Assembly: GCA_051047955.1 (NCBI GenBank)
Contig: JBPGPT010000004.1
Span: 310,001 to 374,000, forward strand
From: Cystobasidiomycetes sp. EMM_F5
Lineage: Eukaryota
Reading direction: 5' to 3'
DNA: 64,000 nucleotides
In this document: positions 8,579-62,972 of the stretch, piece by piece
Numbering within the stretch: the first letter of the stretch is position 1
Layout of the letters: each line of letters begins with the position of its first letter
The notes under the pieces: model-generated
Database searches by the model: none
Told to the model about the DNA's origin: nothing
What the model saw: only the letters and a program-made list of their open reading frames with translations
Position numbers and translations under genes: made by a program

Positions 8579-11500
8579 ATGCTGCGTAGCTTCCTCGCTC
8601 AGCGATGTGGCCGCCTCAAGCTTCGCACAGCAACTTCTGCCAATTTGCCTCGCCGACGTGGCATCATCGCTCGTTCTGATAGCCCGTCAAAGCCCTCTTC
8701 ACCATATAACCTTCATACAGAAGCAAGCCCCGAAGCTGGTCCATCCACAATCCCCCTCTTTGCAAATCAGCTCTCTGTTGATACCGTTCCGACGCCACTA
8801 CCTTCCGCTCTACAAACGACACCCCTGTCCCAGCATGCCGCGTTTCCTTCATCTGGCACGTCGGAGCAGCTCATACTCCTGGATGTATGCCTCGCGACCG
8901 GAAACATCGCAAGAGCAAAGAAGATCTATCGTTCTTTGAGGGCAATGTACGATGACGAAAATAAATACACTCTTGCTCCAGACGAAGCACCTTCGTCGGC
9001 TAGAGTGCACAGCTACTCTCGGAGGAGATTACGCTTGGCCGATATTATACCCGTCGCCGTACATACCGGCTTCCTGAGGGGCATATTCCGGCAAGCACTG
9101 GTGCATAGTCAAGGCGGGTCGACCAACAAGCAGGCCAGGAAGAGAAGATATGTGTCCGAGGCTTGGGAATGGTTTGAAATGCTTTTGAGCGATGAGGATA
9201 CTCATGGGCAGCTGGATAATGCTGCTTGGGCTGTCATGTTTAAAGGCCTGGTAGCGTGAGCAACTAAGTATGGCCGACTTTTGCTCTTACTGATTACACA
9301 CCACATTTTCCACCCTTGTGCTGTTCGATGCAGTACGCAGTCAGTGAACCCACCCGCAGGGCTTGTAGATCCTGCGGCTCCGCACCTGAGGTCCATAGCC
9401 AGACTGTACGACCTCTCTGTTCTGCACCATCGCTCGCTACTCCATATTCTATCGGAGCCCATCTTTTCTTTGAATAGTTTGGCGAGCTTGAATGACCACT
9501 CCGGTGTTGAAGTGGCAGAAGAGTTGGCTTCGTCGTTGGCATCGGCTGGCAATACGGACGCTCTTGCAAGAGTAGAGAGCATACGCATACGTCTTCTAGA
9601 TGGCGATCAATTCGAGGATCGGCAATATCGCCCCTCAGTAGAGACTACGGCTCCGCCAGAGCCGCGGATTCCACCGCCTCCACTACAGCCAGCGCGAAGA
9701 TCTCTGGAAGAAGCCGTTCCACAGCAGCTAGATGCTTTAGTGGGCAACCTCAACTCGATACACGGTCAACATGCCACCACGACCGACCCCTATATTCGTC
9801 AGGAGCAATTGGAGGAGTCCGCATACGATGCAGCGCGGTGGCAGCGCCTGTACGATATGGATGTGCTTGGAAAGCTTGGACTGGCCACTGAGGTGAATCT
9901 CAAGTCGGACACATTACAGAAATACATGGCTTCGTGGCTGCCGAAATTGCGCAAACACTTGGAAGACTCGATAGCCATGACAGCGTCCGAGGTCGCGCTC
10001 AGCGAGAAAGAGGAGAGGGAGATGGTGGATAAGAGAAAGGTGCTCAGCGCAGGAATGCTCACCGAGCAGGCTGACGATGATGCCGCAATCCGAAGTTTGT
10101 TGCGCCTGCTCGACGCAAACAAGCTGGCTTTCATGACAATCGTCGAGATGCTTCGTACGGTCGGAGATATGTCTTTGGCTGCTGGTGGAGTCAGAGCTAC
10201 GCGAGCCATCGTTGAATTGGGCAGACACGTCGAAGACCAATTCGGGGCTGAGGCTTGGAAGATATTGTATCCGGATGTCTACGAAGCGACTATACAGGCG
10301 GCCCGCACGATTAAAGGAAATGCCGCTAGGACTTACAAGGCACAGAAGATTCGGCAATTCATGCAAGGGCAGGGCATCGAGGCCGGAGCTGTCAATGCTG
10401 CGCAAAGACAAGGCTACGGCGACACAGTAGCAGTGGAGATGGACGCAGGCATGTCTCATGCGGAGCGGCAGACGAGAAGACAAGTGTCGAACAAAGCGCT
10501 GCCCTGGAGTCAGCGCATGCGTGCTAAAGTCGGAGGCTTCCTGATCAAAGCTCTTTTCGAGGTCGCAACAGTCGAGAGAACAGCCACTCTACCTTCTGGC
10601 AAGATCGTGACGGAGCAACAGCCCGCGTTTTACCAGACTTTTCAGTATGTTATGGGCAAAAAAGTTGGTGTAATCAAAGCAAACGAGAAAATTGCCGATC
10701 GACTCGATAAGGAAGCTGTCGGAGCCGCCTTCTTTCCTCGCTATCTGCCGATGCTTGTTCCGCCGTTGCCGTGGACAAATTGGAATAGGGGAGGATACCG
10801 TGTACATCCTGGTAAGTCCCCGCTGCGTAATGGTGTGACAAGTGGCTTCGGTCCCTGACACATTCAATCTTACGCAGCGGACGTGATGCGTGTACGAGAT
10901 TCGCCCGAACAATCTGCCTACTTGCGCCATGCCAGTCAGCAGGGGTACCTCTCGTCAGTCTTTTCGGCTTTGGACGTACTCGGCCGGACTCCGTGGCGCA
11001 TCAATCGAGCAATTTACGACATTGTGACCACCGTATGGAACTCGGGCGAAGCGCTAGCCGACATACCAGTTGACTTGGCAGAGACTGTCATCCCGGATCC
11101 AGAGATTCCAGAGGGCACCGATCTGAAAGACCCGTCATGGCGGGAATGCAGACGTATCGAGCTGCGTACAGTGAAAAGACTACGCCAGAAGTCACACTCG
11201 CAGCGTTGCAATACAAACTATAAGCTGGAAATAGCAAGAGCTGTAGGTGTCAAGTAACATCATGCTTTAAGTGACTAGAAACTGATGTATAAGCCCTAAT
11301 TAGTTCTTGGGGGAGACATTTTACTTTCCTCACAATCTCGACTTCAGAGGGCGAGCATACCCTATTCCTCCCAATCTATCCCACATAGGCGATGATCTCT
11401 CGCGAGGCTTACTCGAATTTGGTCAAGGTCGTCCGCTCGGCAAGCGGGGCCTACGATGGTTGCGTATACAGATTGCAAATACCGCAGGATTCGACAAGGC

Positions 11501-57734: not shown

Positions 57735-58764
57735 CTAAGCAAGCTGCTTCTGCGACATGACCGCCGGAGGAGTTCCCGCTCCATTCAGTGTAGACGCATC
57801 GTCGCCATAATTGGCTGCTTTTGCGGTTGCTGCATTCTTGCGATACTTGCGGACACCGTAGACTGCGGCACCGAGGAGGAGAAGACCGCCCAGAACTGAT
57901 CCGACTGCAATTCCAGCTTTCTGGCCTGCGGTTAACCCTGCACCACCGAGATCATCGGTGTAGTCGTTGTTGTCCTACGAGACAGCGACATCAGTTATCA
58001 TTGCGCTGAACTACGCATCAAACGATGACTCACTACTGTTGCGGTAGTCAAGGCACCGGTAAAGCACATTGCTCCAGCTGGAGCGACATACAAAGCTCGG
58101 TCGACAAGAGTGATGTCAGCGCACTGATACAACGTTGTCTGCTTTGTGCCGGCAGTCCATCTGGCTTGAATCGTCAACTGCTGACCAGCCTTGAAGCCAA
58201 GGGCGGCAAAGTCGGGTGCAGCTCCACAGTGATGTCCGCGGTACGTTGTAGTGGAAGCCTCATGCGTGAGCATCGTGAATTGGGAGTTTGAATTGGCATC
58301 TGTTTGCACAGACACATCCATCAGCTCAGCATTCATGGACAATCGAGCAGCCTACGCACTTGGATCGGTTGCGTAGTTGAATGCAAGTCGGTTCGCATCT
58401 GCTCGAACAACGTACGACAGGTTTCCGCCAGCTGAAATCAGGCTATATGTCAGCAAACGTTTAGACGAGCCTTGCAGATTGTAGCAGCTCACTCAAGGGG
58501 AAGTTGGTGCGAGTACCATTGAAAGCAATGCCTCCGCATGGTTGGGCGCTATCAGTGGCATCAGCCCACAATCGCGGGGCTGGCAACCCGAGAGTGACTG
58601 GATGAGACGGAGTGGTCAGTTGAACAGCAAGCGTAAAGGCTCGCTGATCGAACGAACTGACCAGCACTGTTGGATAGATCGCTCGCTCGCTCTTCAAGCG
58701 GGATCGCTATAGCTGTGAGGCTTAAGCCCAAAGCCAGGAGGCTAAAACTGGTGAAGGAGTGCAT
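57735..58764 (-). CDS. BIM1/X325-like extracellular-domain protein with signal peptide, single TM helix and cytoplasmic tail, 5 exons
   Basis: Spliced: signal peptide, then VTLGLPAPRL...QPCGG...RTNFPL...C...LTIQ...LYQCADITL...C, then AGIAVGSVLGGLLLLGAAVYGV-RKYRK. Confidence 0.75.
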
Positions 58765-59239
58765 GATTGAAAGGGGAGGCTGTCTTAAGCTGAAGCAATA
58801 GGGAGGACACGAGGAGGGTGAGGATGGGAAGAAAGAAAAGACGGCGAGGGTGCACCGAAGCAAAGTAAAGCTTTTCAGACGAGCCAGCAGCCGAAGAGTG
58901 CCGCCGTTCTCTTTGCCGACGCATCGGAAATCTAACGCGTCTAGTGCATCTTGGCAGTCCGGGTTCCACCTCGTCTCGCTTGCATAATCTTGCCTTCTTC
59001 CCAACCAAGATGCGGTTCAAGGCAACTTTCCCATCTAATCTGATAAGATTGGGGATCATGCCAAGTGATACCGGATGGTCCGGACTGATCTCCGGAGCAA
59101 TCAGATTAAAATGCCACCTCACGAGAGGGTCACACGATGCATTGTCGCTTAATCGTGAAAGCTAACTTGCCAGCTACCAGGATACAACTTTCTCATCGGC
59201 CGGAGGCTACTGTCCCGCTCCGGACCTCGGATAGCAGAT

Positions 59240-60896
59240 TCAAGCTTTTCGACATTTGTACGTGACTACCGGCTCCATGACTGCTATGACCGAGCATGCT
59301 CCAGCGTTTACTAGATCCTCAATCACTAGATCGACTTCCTTGTACGCATCCGGTGCTTCTTCGTAGAGCAAGTTCAAGTCTTCGCAGATGACCTGAGATC
59401 CGAAAACCGTAGTGTGCAGTTTTCCCTTGTAGAACGGCTTCGAAAACTCTGCTTTGGCTGTTGTGCGAGCCATACTCCTTCCTGCACCATGCGCGAGAGA
59501 GAAGGCTGATGGAAGAGAATGTATCAGCCACTGCACTGACTGCGAAACGACGAACCATCCGTACCATTGTTCAAGCAATCGCCGGTTGGCAATACGACAT
59601 AACTTCGAGCTCCTCGACTACCCGGTATAACCACCGCACCATCAAAGGTAGACGCAGCGCCTTTACGATGAATATAGACATCTCGTTGGCCAGAGCCCTG
59701 CCAAGCGGCAGCGTCGACCGTCCGCTTCTCCACGAAATTGTGCCATACATCCAAAATCTTGACAGCGTGGCGTGTGACATCGCCAGCTAAAGCGTCCATT
59801 ACTCTTCTAGCAATCAGAGCACGATTCGCTCTTGCCCAATTCAGAGCTTGATCGTGAAGTTCCAAGTAGTCATCTGCTTCCTCAGTGCCAGCAGATAGGT
59901 TCTTGAGCGCCTTTGGAACGGTGTCTAGTACGTGCTGGCCGAGACTTCGCGATCCAGAGTGTACGAGCAGAACGAGCTTTTCGCTATCAAGGCCAAGCGC
60001 TTCGGCAGTATCAGCATCCCGCACCTCGACCACTCTGAGGATCTCAGCAAAGTGGTTGCCACGACCGATAGTACCGAGGTCATCAAACATTGTGCTGAAT
60101 GCCGTTCCTCCTGGAAGATGAGCTTTGACTTTAAATTCCGACAGCAGTGCTTCTCGCGCCTCGTCATTCGGAAATGGGAACGGTCCTTCGATGTTTGTCA
60201 ACTTGGCTGCTAGCTGCTGCGGTCTGTCTGCACTTTTTGACGGCAGGGGAAGGCTGTAAAGCTGTGAAGACGGGCAGGTTTCAGCTAGACCCCTCCATAG
60301 TAAATAAATAAGAACCACTTGCCGACATGCCGCAGCCGATATCACCGCCAATGAGAGCCGGATAGAAAAGTCCATCCGTGATGAAGGTCGCTCCTATCGG
60401 GACTGAATCAACTGTCAATACCCGCATGCGCGGATGGGCGGTCGAGTAACTCACACTTTCCGCCTGCGTGCAGGTCGGGCATGCCGACGCTGAGCAGCAT
60501 ACCCTTGAGACCAGCAGTCGCCTTGAGCTGTTTCCATGCTTCGGCATCGACTGGTGAACTGTCTGCAATGATCCTGTACCGGCCGCTCGCCTCGGAAGGC
60601 GTACTGGCCACCATACCAGTATAGGGTTCCCCCATTGAAAAGTACAATTCGACCTGGGTATGCGATGATGCTGCCATTTCACCAATCTTGCCGGCAATCC
60701 GGTCATCTGTCAATGCGGCAGACAAGGCAAAGCCGGTAGACAAATAGATAATGGTTGCCGTCTTCTTCATCTTGAGTTTCTGCTTGCCTCGGTTTGCCAG
60801 GTGGTTGTATATGCCAGTCGTCGGGAGGGTCATTTTGACAGCACCTCGTTCGTTGTGCTTGGAGTTTAGGATGAAGAGGAACGTAAGGTCACTCAT
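59240..60896 (-). CDS. RtcB-family RNA ligase (RtcB2 / release factor H-coupled-like), 4 exons, with N-terminal extension
   Basis: GMPDLHAG, PIGA, IGGDIGCGM, GTIGRGNHFAE, VHSGSR, WARANR, DVWHN, HRKGAA, IPGSRG, SLAHGAGR, YEEAPDAYK, PVVTYK. Confidence 0.93.
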
Positions 60897-61848: not shown

Positions 61849-62802
61849 CTACCTCAGAGCGTACCTAGTACAAATGTCAGCTTATGCTGCATGAAATACT
61901 CCGGACCAAGGAGCCTCACATCCACACTGGGAAGAGATCGTCCGGAAAGCCGTGCTGCAGATCCTCCCTTATGATTGTCAAGTCTGCCTTCTGGAACAGC
62001 TGTTTCCACAGTTTCGTGGACCGCGTCCATGAGCGGTCTTCCTCGTCGAATTCGCGTTCACGTCCGCCGACCGCATTTTCCTTAACTACGATGACCGACT
62101 TGCTGTCTCTCAAGCCTCTTTTGCAAGCTTTGAACCAGTCTACGAGCTCGTCGTCTGAAACTATTTTAGGAAGAGCTTCAGACATTGTATCTTTTCTGCT
62201 TGGAAACTTGACGCACGATGTCCCAAACACCACTGGCACCAGATTATATCGTAGCCAGCCGGCTCTTGCTCATTCACCGCAACTCCAATGGAGCCTATAC
62301 AACCAGACTCGTTGCTTTTGACGTCGTCCGGACGGAAATCCTGCAGACCGAGTTCGTAAAAGCGGACGGTCTTCACCTCCTGCATATTGCGGGTATCGTA
62401 CAGCGACTTCCACTCGCCGGCTTTCGCAGCTCGCAATGCTTCCTGCACGAAATGAGGAGTAGGCTCTACAATGTCAACATAGTCGACGAGGGGCAAGAGA
62501 ACAGTGGAAGTAACGCGTCCAATTCCGCTTCCCACGTCCAAAGCGCGCGTCTTTTGCTTTGTTGTTGCCGCAGCTTTGCCGTCTGAATTGCCCGGTCCTT
62601 TGATCCGAGATAGGTGAGGCGCTACCGTCAAGAGAAACATGCGACTCGACATTGCGTCTGCGTGCGAAAGAGTTCCGAAGCCTCCGAGTACGCCATCTAC
62701 AGTCGCCGGTCTGGAAGTCCAATATTTGACCCCTCCCTCCTTGTCTGCGGGCTTTCTGTGCGCCGCGTCGGATTCTTTCCGTTTCTTTGACGGCGGTGCC
62801 AT
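61849..62802 (-). CDS. NTM1: Alpha-N-terminal protein methyltransferase (Ntm1/Tae1)
   Basis: YW...ATVDGVLGGFG, ALDVGSGIGRVT, VDIVEP, GLQDF, YDIIWCQWCLGH, IVVKEN, DEEDRSWTR, LFPVWM|YALR*. Confidence 0.93.
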
Positions 62803-62972
62803 GACTGAACGAGTGCAAGTATCCTGTGTGGTGCGCAGAAAGGATAGCAGGTCGTCGGTCTTTTTGGTTGCTGTCCACCTCGATCGTCGATAATTTGGGC
62901 CAATATGTCTGTAATTCTGGCTGGTGAGCTTGTTTTCCGCCAACAAGTACGCCTTTTATTTCAATATCAACC

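Follow-up and report, generated by a model that had tools for sequence, protein, structure and literature searches.

Known RtcB2 systems and the fungal locus

RtcB2 of Escherichia coli ATCC 25922 is encoded in an rtcB2-prfH operon (PMC9304027, PMC9223846, PMC13166195), and Tian et al. (2022, PNAS 119:e2202464119; PMC9304027) counted 98 RtcB2s in eukaryotes, mostly in fungi and plants. We analyzed a gene of this kind in a stretch of 64,000 nucleotides (nt) from the genome deposited as Cystobasidiomycetes sp. EMM_F5 (assembly GCA_051047955.1, contig JBPGPT010000004.1, positions 310,001 to 374,000 of the forward strand), which is referred to as the window and in which all positions are counted from its first letter. 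On the minus strand at 59240-60896, an RtcB-family gene of four exons was found, and its best splice model gave a product of 494 amino acids (aa). We read it as an intact basidiomycete gene for a eukaryote-type RtcB2 that would mend, independently of PrfH, translation-machinery RNA which ribotoxins or stress nucleases have cut, and not as a housekeeping tRNA ligase; we put the probability of this reading at roughly 0.55.

In the passages of Tian et al. on eukaryotes, repair of the 40S subunit was predicted for eukaryotic RtcB2 because fungi and plants use Trl1 for tRNA splicing, PrfH was described as confined to bacteria, and the origin of the damage and the rescue of the 80S ribosome were posed as questions (PMC9304027). 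The proteins counted there are of the same kind as the window protein, namely, cluster-2 RtcBs of fungi and plants that use Trl1 and lack PrfH. These passages offer a count and a prediction, and an extra N-terminal domain, intron structure, or phylogeny does not appear in them (PMC9304027). Literature searches on eukaryotic, fungal, and plant RtcB2 and on PrfH retrieved no follow-up to this work among the papers covered, and a 2026 paper on RtcB2 does not mention eukaryotes. An earlier reading of the window, made by a model from the letters and the translated reading frames (hereafter, the sequence-only reading), had presented a fungal RNA-repair system as functionally novel; this idea had already been put forward as a prediction in the passages cited (PMC9304027). 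The gene thus appears to be a further member of a kind already noted in print, and its fusion to a beta-grasp domain is the one feature that we did not find described in the papers covered.

The described relatives differ from the window protein in distinct ways. The E. coli RtcB2 matches the same NF007153 and TIGR03073 models and shares the short core and the PDLH, IPGSRG, and EEAPxAYK signatures, and its ligase chemistry is presumably the same. This bacterial protein lacks the beta-grasp domain, and its translation is coupled to that of PrfH, whereas the window protein has no PrfH nearby. Canonical archaeal and metazoan RTCB (HSPC117; PDB 1uc2 and 7p3b) belongs to the same Pfam family and has the same metal ligands and histidine nucleophile, but it is distant (~40-43 bits with exon 3), has additional segments in its core at a total of ~480-510 aa, and lacks the beta-grasp domain; its described partners are archease and, in animals, DDX1, FAM98B, CGI-99, and Ashwin (PMC8668186). 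Among bacteria, the RtcB2-like proteins of Myxococcota come closest in their cores and share with the fungal gene the lack of PrfH, but they comprise 374-395 aa, lack the beta-grasp domain, fall inside a bacterial clade, and are encoded beside rsfS and rlmH. Fungal Trl1 acts on the same broken ends (2',3'-cyclic phosphate and 5'-OH) and is described as mending toxin-cut tRNA in yeast as well (PMC10946435), but the two ligases have unrelated folds and mechanisms, Trl1 being an ATP-dependent enzyme of three domains that leaves a 2'-phosphate.

Assignment to the RtcB2 subfamily

Five RtcB catalytic motifs and three signatures resembling RtcB2 had been listed in the sequence-only reading, and all of them were located in the 494-aa product: DIGCG (aa 168-172), GNHF (242-245), HSGSR (275-279), WHN (347-349), and HGAGR (412-416), together with PDLH, IPGSRG, and EEAPDAYK. 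The Pfam RtcB family (PF01139) matched exon 3 with 122 bits and exon 4 with 58.2 bits, at a cut-off of 27 bits. When aligned by HMMER with RtcB of Pyrococcus horikoshii (1uc2), His243, His275, and His412 corresponded to His203, His234, and His404, respectively, and His348 to the histidine of the 'dvahni' segment. In the P. horikoshii enzyme, Asp95, Cys98, His203, His234, His329, and His404 are described as Mn ligands or as the guanylylated nucleophile (PMC10630183). Asp168 and Cys171 of the DIGCG motif occupy positions at which Asp and Cys are nearly invariant across the family alignment; a PDB sequence search with the 28-aa piece from exon 2 gave no match.

Among the NCBIfam models, NF007153 and TIGR03073 (release_rtcB) were the best for all four exon pieces, and the rough sums of the scores, with the exons scored separately, were 288 bits for TIGR03073 (cut-off 271.8) and 344.5 bits for NF007153 (cut-off 407). 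PDLH, [IVL]PGSRG, and EE.P..YK were found in 75, 71, and 59 of the 76 bacterial RtcB2 rows of the alignment and in 27, 33, and 32 of the 33 eukaryotic rows, respectively, and these signatures mark the subfamily against 10 other RtcB paralogues (0, 0, and 1 occurrences). The core of the window protein scored 187-322 bits against the RtcB2-type open reading frames (ORFs) of 80 bacterial loci, compared with 63-110 bits against the 10 other paralogues. Exon 3 reached ~40-42 bits with human RTCB chains (E 1e-9 to 4e-9), compared with 148-177 bits with the RtcB2 models, and a full-length relative (P0006) scored 75 bits against human RTCB and 105 bits against P. horikoshii RtcB. On these comparisons, we assign the protein to the short RtcB2 subfamily (TIGR03073/NF007153) and not to canonical tRNA-splicing RTCB.

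The same scores bear on whether the gene encodes the ligase with which the host splices tRNA and HAC1, in place of Trl1 or as its backup, which we consider quite improbable. E. coli RtcB is reported to be able to replace yeast TRL1 (PMC10946435), and any active RtcB could therefore, in principle, carry out tRNA splicing. This must be set against the large distance of exon 3 from canonical RTCB, the description of three-domain Trl1 in fungi of three phyla (PMC10946435), and the restriction of the named fungal carriers to a few scattered genera.

Relatives and phylogenetic position

A total of 271 long proteins (at least 423 aa) matched exon 3, the best of them with only 46-48% identity. They included sequences from Selaginella, Phenoliferia (a microbotryomycete), Mortierellomycota, chytrids, Hyaloraphidium, Tilletia, and Geopyxis and, further, from liverworts, bdelloid rotifers, Naegleria, Acrasis, ciliates, and the giant virus Edafosvirus; the fungal carriers named in this search came from a few scattered genera. 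In bacterial genomes, relatives were encoded in 562 of 584 candidate stretches, and the best 80 of the 562 (37-50% identity) were taken as the bacterial sample. Of 33 ORFs tested against NCBIfam, 17 were TIGR03072; a PrfH profile was made from 13 neighbours that had been confirmed in this way, and with this profile, PrfH was found to adjoin the ligase in 51 of the 80 bacterial loci. No PrfH-like frame was detected with it among the 1642 six-frame segments of the window, in which the best hit (E 0.01) fell inside an SMC gene. This agrees with the earlier remark that no release-factor gene is visible there.

Trees were constructed from 120 rows with FastTree, from 88 rows with a quick IQ-TREE run, and from 43 rows with a careful IQ-TREE run. 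Ten bacterial RtcB paralogues from five genomes (six in the 43-row tree) served as the outgroup, and archaeal and metazoan RTCB were left out. A phylogeny with bacterial RtcB had been suggested in the sequence-only reading; in all three trees, the window protein grouped with RtcB2-like proteins, which were separated from the other bacterial paralogues with support of 99* (120 rows), 99* (88 rows), and 100/99 (43 rows). All sampled PrfH-linked and Myxococcota genes formed one bacterial clade that excluded every eukaryotic row (99* with 120 rows and 98/92 with 43 rows). With 88 rows, the star fell on the complementary branch instead, a 98* clade comprising all 34 eukaryotic rows and two rows from bacterial metagenome-assembled genomes (MAGs).

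In all three trees, the window protein lay among fungal sequences and adjoined that of Phenoliferia (92/87 in the 43-row tree). Forcing it into a clade with 19 bacterial rows lowered the log-likelihood by 21.1 units (p 0.012 in the approximately unbiased (AU) test, for a group named after the tree had been seen). Of 200 bootstrap trees for the 43 rows, 18% had a branch that set the eukaryotic sequences apart from all others, and these sequences may be either a clade or a grade relative to the bacterial clade. By these trees, the window protein is placed outside the bacterial PrfH-linked clade and inside a eukaryote-rich group. The likeness to bacterial RtcB2 pointed out earlier holds at the level of the subfamily and does not extend to the bacterial PrfH-linked clade (98/92, AU p 0.012) or to the extra domain of ~95 aa.

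That the gene is a bacterial contaminant, or arrived very recently from a bacterium carrying an rtcB2-prfH operon, is hardly credible, and this reading was rejected. Its one attraction is that the top core identity, 50-51%, is to a Corallococcus protein. The gene, however, has three introns, eukaryotic neighbours on its contig, and a GC content matching its surroundings, its N-terminal domain finds no room in the 80 bacterial ORFs, and the joint clade with bacterial rows is disfavoured by the AU test given above. The statement in the sequence-only reading that this is a nuclear gene and not contamination was borne out by the introns, the neighbours, and the even GC content.

The Corallococcus protein belongs to the Myxococcota, whose cores were the most similar among the bacteria (50-51% identity) and which lacked PrfH. 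At four Myxococcota-type loci (L001:2381-4637, L002:4649-6897, L003:4712-6900, and L008:4657-6897), the RtcB2-like gene is located downstream of rsfS, encoding ribosome silencing factor, and in three of them also of rlmH, encoding a 23S rRNA methyltransferase; five such loci were tested, with rsfS in four and rlmH in three. Here the ligase gene is thus linked to ribosome functions in another setting than that of the PrfH loci. One of these loci (L002, BNCN01000002.1) is titled Comamonas sp. KCTC 72670; its gene is sister to that of Myxococcus sp. 1LA (95*) and its rsfS-rlmH neighbours are Myxococcaceae-like, and the assembly may be mislabelled or contaminated.

Two bacterial MAG contigs (L080:3906-5081 and L077:1332-2626; Planctomycetota, Bdellovibrionota) encode a eukaryotic-type RtcB core that grouped with the eukaryotic rows, without the beta-grasp domain and without PrfH. 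The gene on L080 has bacterial neighbours, and that on L077 is split in two frames next to an integrase-like ORF. The Selaginella protein was placed among fungal sequences in all three trees.

N-terminal beta-grasp domain

The predicted N-terminal beta-grasp domain, which was overlooked in the sequence-only reading, is the main difference from bacterial RtcB2. A conserved N-terminal stretch of ~85-95 aa was present in all but a few of the 34 aligned eukaryotic and viral homologues, with the consensus M-P-x-x-R-x-T-L-x-x-N ... AKxKLRxKK..R.F...G.EL ... VS.GE.FVG. Bacterial RtcB2-type proteins lack this stretch, and their ORFs (80 ORFs, 318-457 aa) leave no room for the domain. AlphaFold2, supplied with a 35-row alignment, modelled the copy of this stretch in the window protein with a mean predicted local distance difference test (pLDDT) score of 86.4 and with 88-97 over residues 1-90; the topology was b-b-a-b-a-b, and residues 64-77 formed an additional helix. 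When the model was compared with 48,161 chains using VIA-align, beta-grasp domains made up all 50 rows listed, among them CIDE-N (Z 9.3, root-mean-square deviation 2.2, 78 aligned residues), a domain of a mitoribosomal protein (Z 9.2), PB1 (Z 9.1), and DCX (Z 7.6-7.8); the alignments with CIDE-N, PB1, and DCX spanned residues 1-95. The fold call rests on VIA-align and the topology; Foldseek against the PDB returned nothing at E <= 0.001.

Sequence searches pointed to a domain that may be peculiar to these ligases. Exon 1 of the window had no Pfam match, and one of 10 homologues matched PF25510 (DCDC1 ubiquitin-like domain) with 21.9 bits, under the cut-off of 30.4 bits. A profile built from eight of the N-terminal domains retrieved 13 proteins, 12 of which carried PF01139, while the thirteenth was a 185-aa fragment running into an RtcB core. 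At the sensitivity used, the domain thus appeared only on RtcB2-type ligases, and its absence elsewhere is weak evidence because the profile search was limited by its word index. A phmmer search with the 95-aa domain of the window against 1.84 billion representatives yielded two matches, P0248 and P0247. The latter is a repetitive protein in which a 26-aa stretch was matched seven times, and it was dismissed as a chance match. In P0248, a metagenome fragment that covers just exon 1 of a closer relative, the beta-grasp domain carries an insertion where the window protein has its extra helix. A Protein Atlas look-up with the N-terminal 85 aa of a homologue gave no usable match, and literature searches combining RtcB with ubiquitin-like, doublecortin, or beta-grasp retrieved no description of the N-terminal domain.

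The beta-grasp-RtcB2 architecture is also present in Selaginella, liverworts, bdelloid rotifers, heteroloboseans, ciliates, and Edafosvirus (P0005, P0015, P0022, P0033, and P0055). Other domains are fused to the RtcB2-like proteins P0032, P0034, P0066, and P0124 according to a precomputed Pfam column: macro (PF01661), AAA (PF00004 and PF07728), histone deacetylase (PF00850), and enoyl-CoA hydratase (PF00378).

Gene structure

The three introns of the sequence-only reading stood insofar as the three interruptions of the frame are real; the boundaries it implied were outscored by a model with introns of 52, 61, and 59 nt (Table 1). For this comparison, 24 in-frame splice models were scored against a profile of 33 eukaryotic homologues. 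The 52/61/59-nt model ranked first with 492.9 bits, followed by a runner-up with 486.1 bits, and the lowest model scored 462.6 bits; the 12 models that used neither the GC-AG intron nor the 59-nt intron remained at 462.6-473.6 bits. Our initial gene models with the shortest GT-AG introns (20-43 nt) were dropped in favour of the longer introns, because the shortest-intron boundaries left 3-9 surplus residues per junction compared with the homologues.

With intron 1 of the top model, the gap from DLH to PIG is five residues, which is the mode both in eukaryotes (29 of 33 rows) and in bacteria (64 of 75 rows), and with intron 3, the gap from PGSRG to HGAGR is 20 residues, again the mode in both (16 of 33 and 52 of 70 rows, respectively). 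Met1 lines up with Met1 of 34 homologues. Intron 2 has the least certain boundaries, with GT-AG introns of 31-34 nt as the competing options. The metagenome fragment P0248, a 158-aa gene call on an ENA contig of 1935 bp, is 39% identical over exon 1, and its match ends at the same lysine, as would be expected of an unspliced orthologue with an intron in the same place. An intron of ~57-61 nt with a CTGAT box was also located in the mitochondrial RNA polymerase (mtRNAP) gene of the window (~11243-11303, plus strand), where two tblastn segments are separated by a gap while the query residues are contiguous. From the genomic letters and these comparisons, we infer the splicing of the gene.

We also considered that the gene might be an unexpressed or decaying relic whose frame is open only through the choice of splice sites, and judged this improbable. 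A sequencing-run search with words of the window listed no RNA run and three DNA runs (0.06-0.10 of the sampled words), intron 2 relies on a non-canonical GC donor, and a longish terminal branch and a patchy fungal distribution would also suit a relic. Against this, GC-AG introns usually have GCAAGT as their donor, and the top splice model yields the modal spacing of the family at two junctions, with spacing not having been fitted. Moreover, the catalytic and signature motifs are all intact, and the N-terminal domain was modelled at a pLDDT above 88. Judged by its sequence, the gene is intact and nuclear.

Table 1. Features of the predicted RtcB2-type gene in window coordinates.
Feature	Position	Strand	Basis or content
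Start codon ATG	60896	-	Reading-frame analysis
Exon 1	60455..60896	-	aa 1-147 plus one base; start codon, predicted beta-grasp domain, linker, and start of the RtcB core with GMPDLH; translation P0001
Predicted N-terminal beta-grasp (ubiquitin-like) domain, aa 1-95	60612..60896	-	AlphaFold2 model, VIA-align, topology
Intron 1, 52 nt, GTGAGT...CAG (GT-AG)	60403..60454	-	~7 bits above the 43-nt alternative
Exon 2	60323..60402	-	PIGATF...GGDIGCGMS with the Asp/Cys metal-ligand motif; P0004 matches NF007153 positions 54-79
Intron 2, 61 nt, GCAAGT...CACAG (GC-AG)	60262..60322	-	12.5-13.8 bits above three GT-AG alternatives; least certain boundary
Exon 3	59565..60261	-	GNHF, HSGSR, WHN, HRKGA, IPGSRG; Pfam RtcB 4.8e-35
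Intron 3, 59 nt, GTACGG...CTGAT...CAG (GT-AG)	59506..59564	-	8-10 bits above the 20- and 29-nt alternatives
Exon 4	59240..59505	-	SLAHGAGR (nucleophile His412), EEAPDAYK, stop codon; Pfam RtcB 1.1e-15
Stop codon	59240-59242	-	End of exon 4

Proposed function

For PrfH-independent repair of translation-machinery RNA, the chemistry of the family suggests the following course. His412 would be guanylylated from GTP in a Mn-dependent step, GMP would be passed to the RNA 3'-phosphate after the 2',3'-cyclic phosphate had been opened, and attack by the 5'-OH end would seal the break. The likeliest substrates would be ribosomal RNA (rRNA) of the small subunit, as Tian et al. predicted, or tRNA cleaved in the anticodon. 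Repair would run without PrfH, and the clade-specific beta-grasp domain would be the best candidate for a targeting module. The protein opens directly with a folded domain and has no presequence, and the ligase is therefore likely cytosolic or nuclear.

Several observations weigh against this reading. Tian et al. point out that eukaryotic ribosomes are not known to be attacked by any colicin E3-like toxin (PMC9304027). Bacterial RtcB2 reaches its site on the 70S ribosome only with PrfH, and eukaryotes are not known to have a counterpart of PrfH. The beta-grasp fold is very common, the VIA-align Z of 9.3 is slightly above the 7-8 that is typical of unmatched models according to the tool, and in the Foldseek search DCX, CIDE, and PB1 came first at E 0.014 or worse. 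The summed NF007153 score of 344.5 bits, a rough sum over separately scored exons, is under the cut-off of 407 bits. Finally, the terminal branch of the window protein in the 43-row tree is longish, at 0.8 changes per column compared with 0.64 for Phenoliferia.

A different nucleic-acid substrate, with no special link to the ribosome, is unlikely by our estimate; the ligase would then cap or seal DNA 3'-phosphates, circularise RNA, or repair mRNA or non-coding RNA. The activities described for RtcB paralogues do vary: E. coli RtcB adds a 3'pp5'G cap to DNA, and the paralogues of Myxococcus xanthus differ in RNA and DNA ligation and in capping (PMC10630183). The eukaryotic group lies apart from the PrfH-linked clade, so that substrate specificity need not carry over. 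Some RtcB2-like proteins are fused to macro (PF01661), AAA (PF00004), or deacetylase (PF00850) domains. On the other side, the closest characterised enzyme is E. coli RtcB2, described as rRNA-specific (PMC9304027), and even the PrfH-less Myxococcota relatives stand beside the ribosome genes rsfS and rlmH.

Within the preferred reading of PrfH-independent repair, a more specific proposal can be stated, which we regard as tentative and rather doubtful. In this single-polypeptide form of ribosome repair in eukaryotes, the beta-grasp domain would replace PrfH and dock the RtcB2 core on the damaged 40S subunit, on the stalled 80S ribosome, or on a rescue factor bound to it, and the cut small-subunit rRNA would be resealed. 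If this were true, a cytosolic rRNA-repair pathway would exist in fungi, early land plants, rotifers, amoeboflagellates, and ciliates, that is, in groups described by reviews as having lost RTCB, and it would have been copied by a giant virus.

Ribosome repair has, to our knowledge, been demonstrated for no enzyme other than bacterial RtcB2. The window gene and its relatives show that a second ligase, of the RtcB2 type, is still carried by scattered fungi, liverworts, a lycophyte, rotifers, and protists. Whether eukaryotes reseal cut rRNA and what takes the place of PrfH are among the questions posed by Tian et al. (PMC9304027), and the conserved beta-grasp domain would provide a concrete handle that makes the replacement of PrfH directly testable. 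With regard to antifungals directed at Trl1, a second ligase joining the same RNA ends might offer a bypass in carrier species.

Genomic context and host

Among the products of the window's long frames are mtRNAP, IML1, an SMC protein, and an NTM1-type methyltransferase, whose genes are eukaryotic and nuclear, and the GC content is even (0.51-0.54) across the RtcB2-type gene and its flanks. When the mtRNAP frame was searched, the named proteins among the 120 matches listed were all from basidiomycetes, led by Microbotryomycetes with 50-63% identity at most. The host is therefore a basidiomycete, probably within Pucciniomycotina and without a close annotated relative. The three introns, the eukaryotic neighbours, the even GC content, and a nearest relative, Phenoliferia, from the same subphylum all point to a long residence of the gene in the nucleus. 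Its upstream neighbour at 62161-62955 (minus strand) encodes the NTM1-type protein N-terminal methyltransferase (PF05891), and the frame just downstream at 58561-59016 (minus strand) contains a short hydrophobic stretch resembling a signal peptide after an internal Met.

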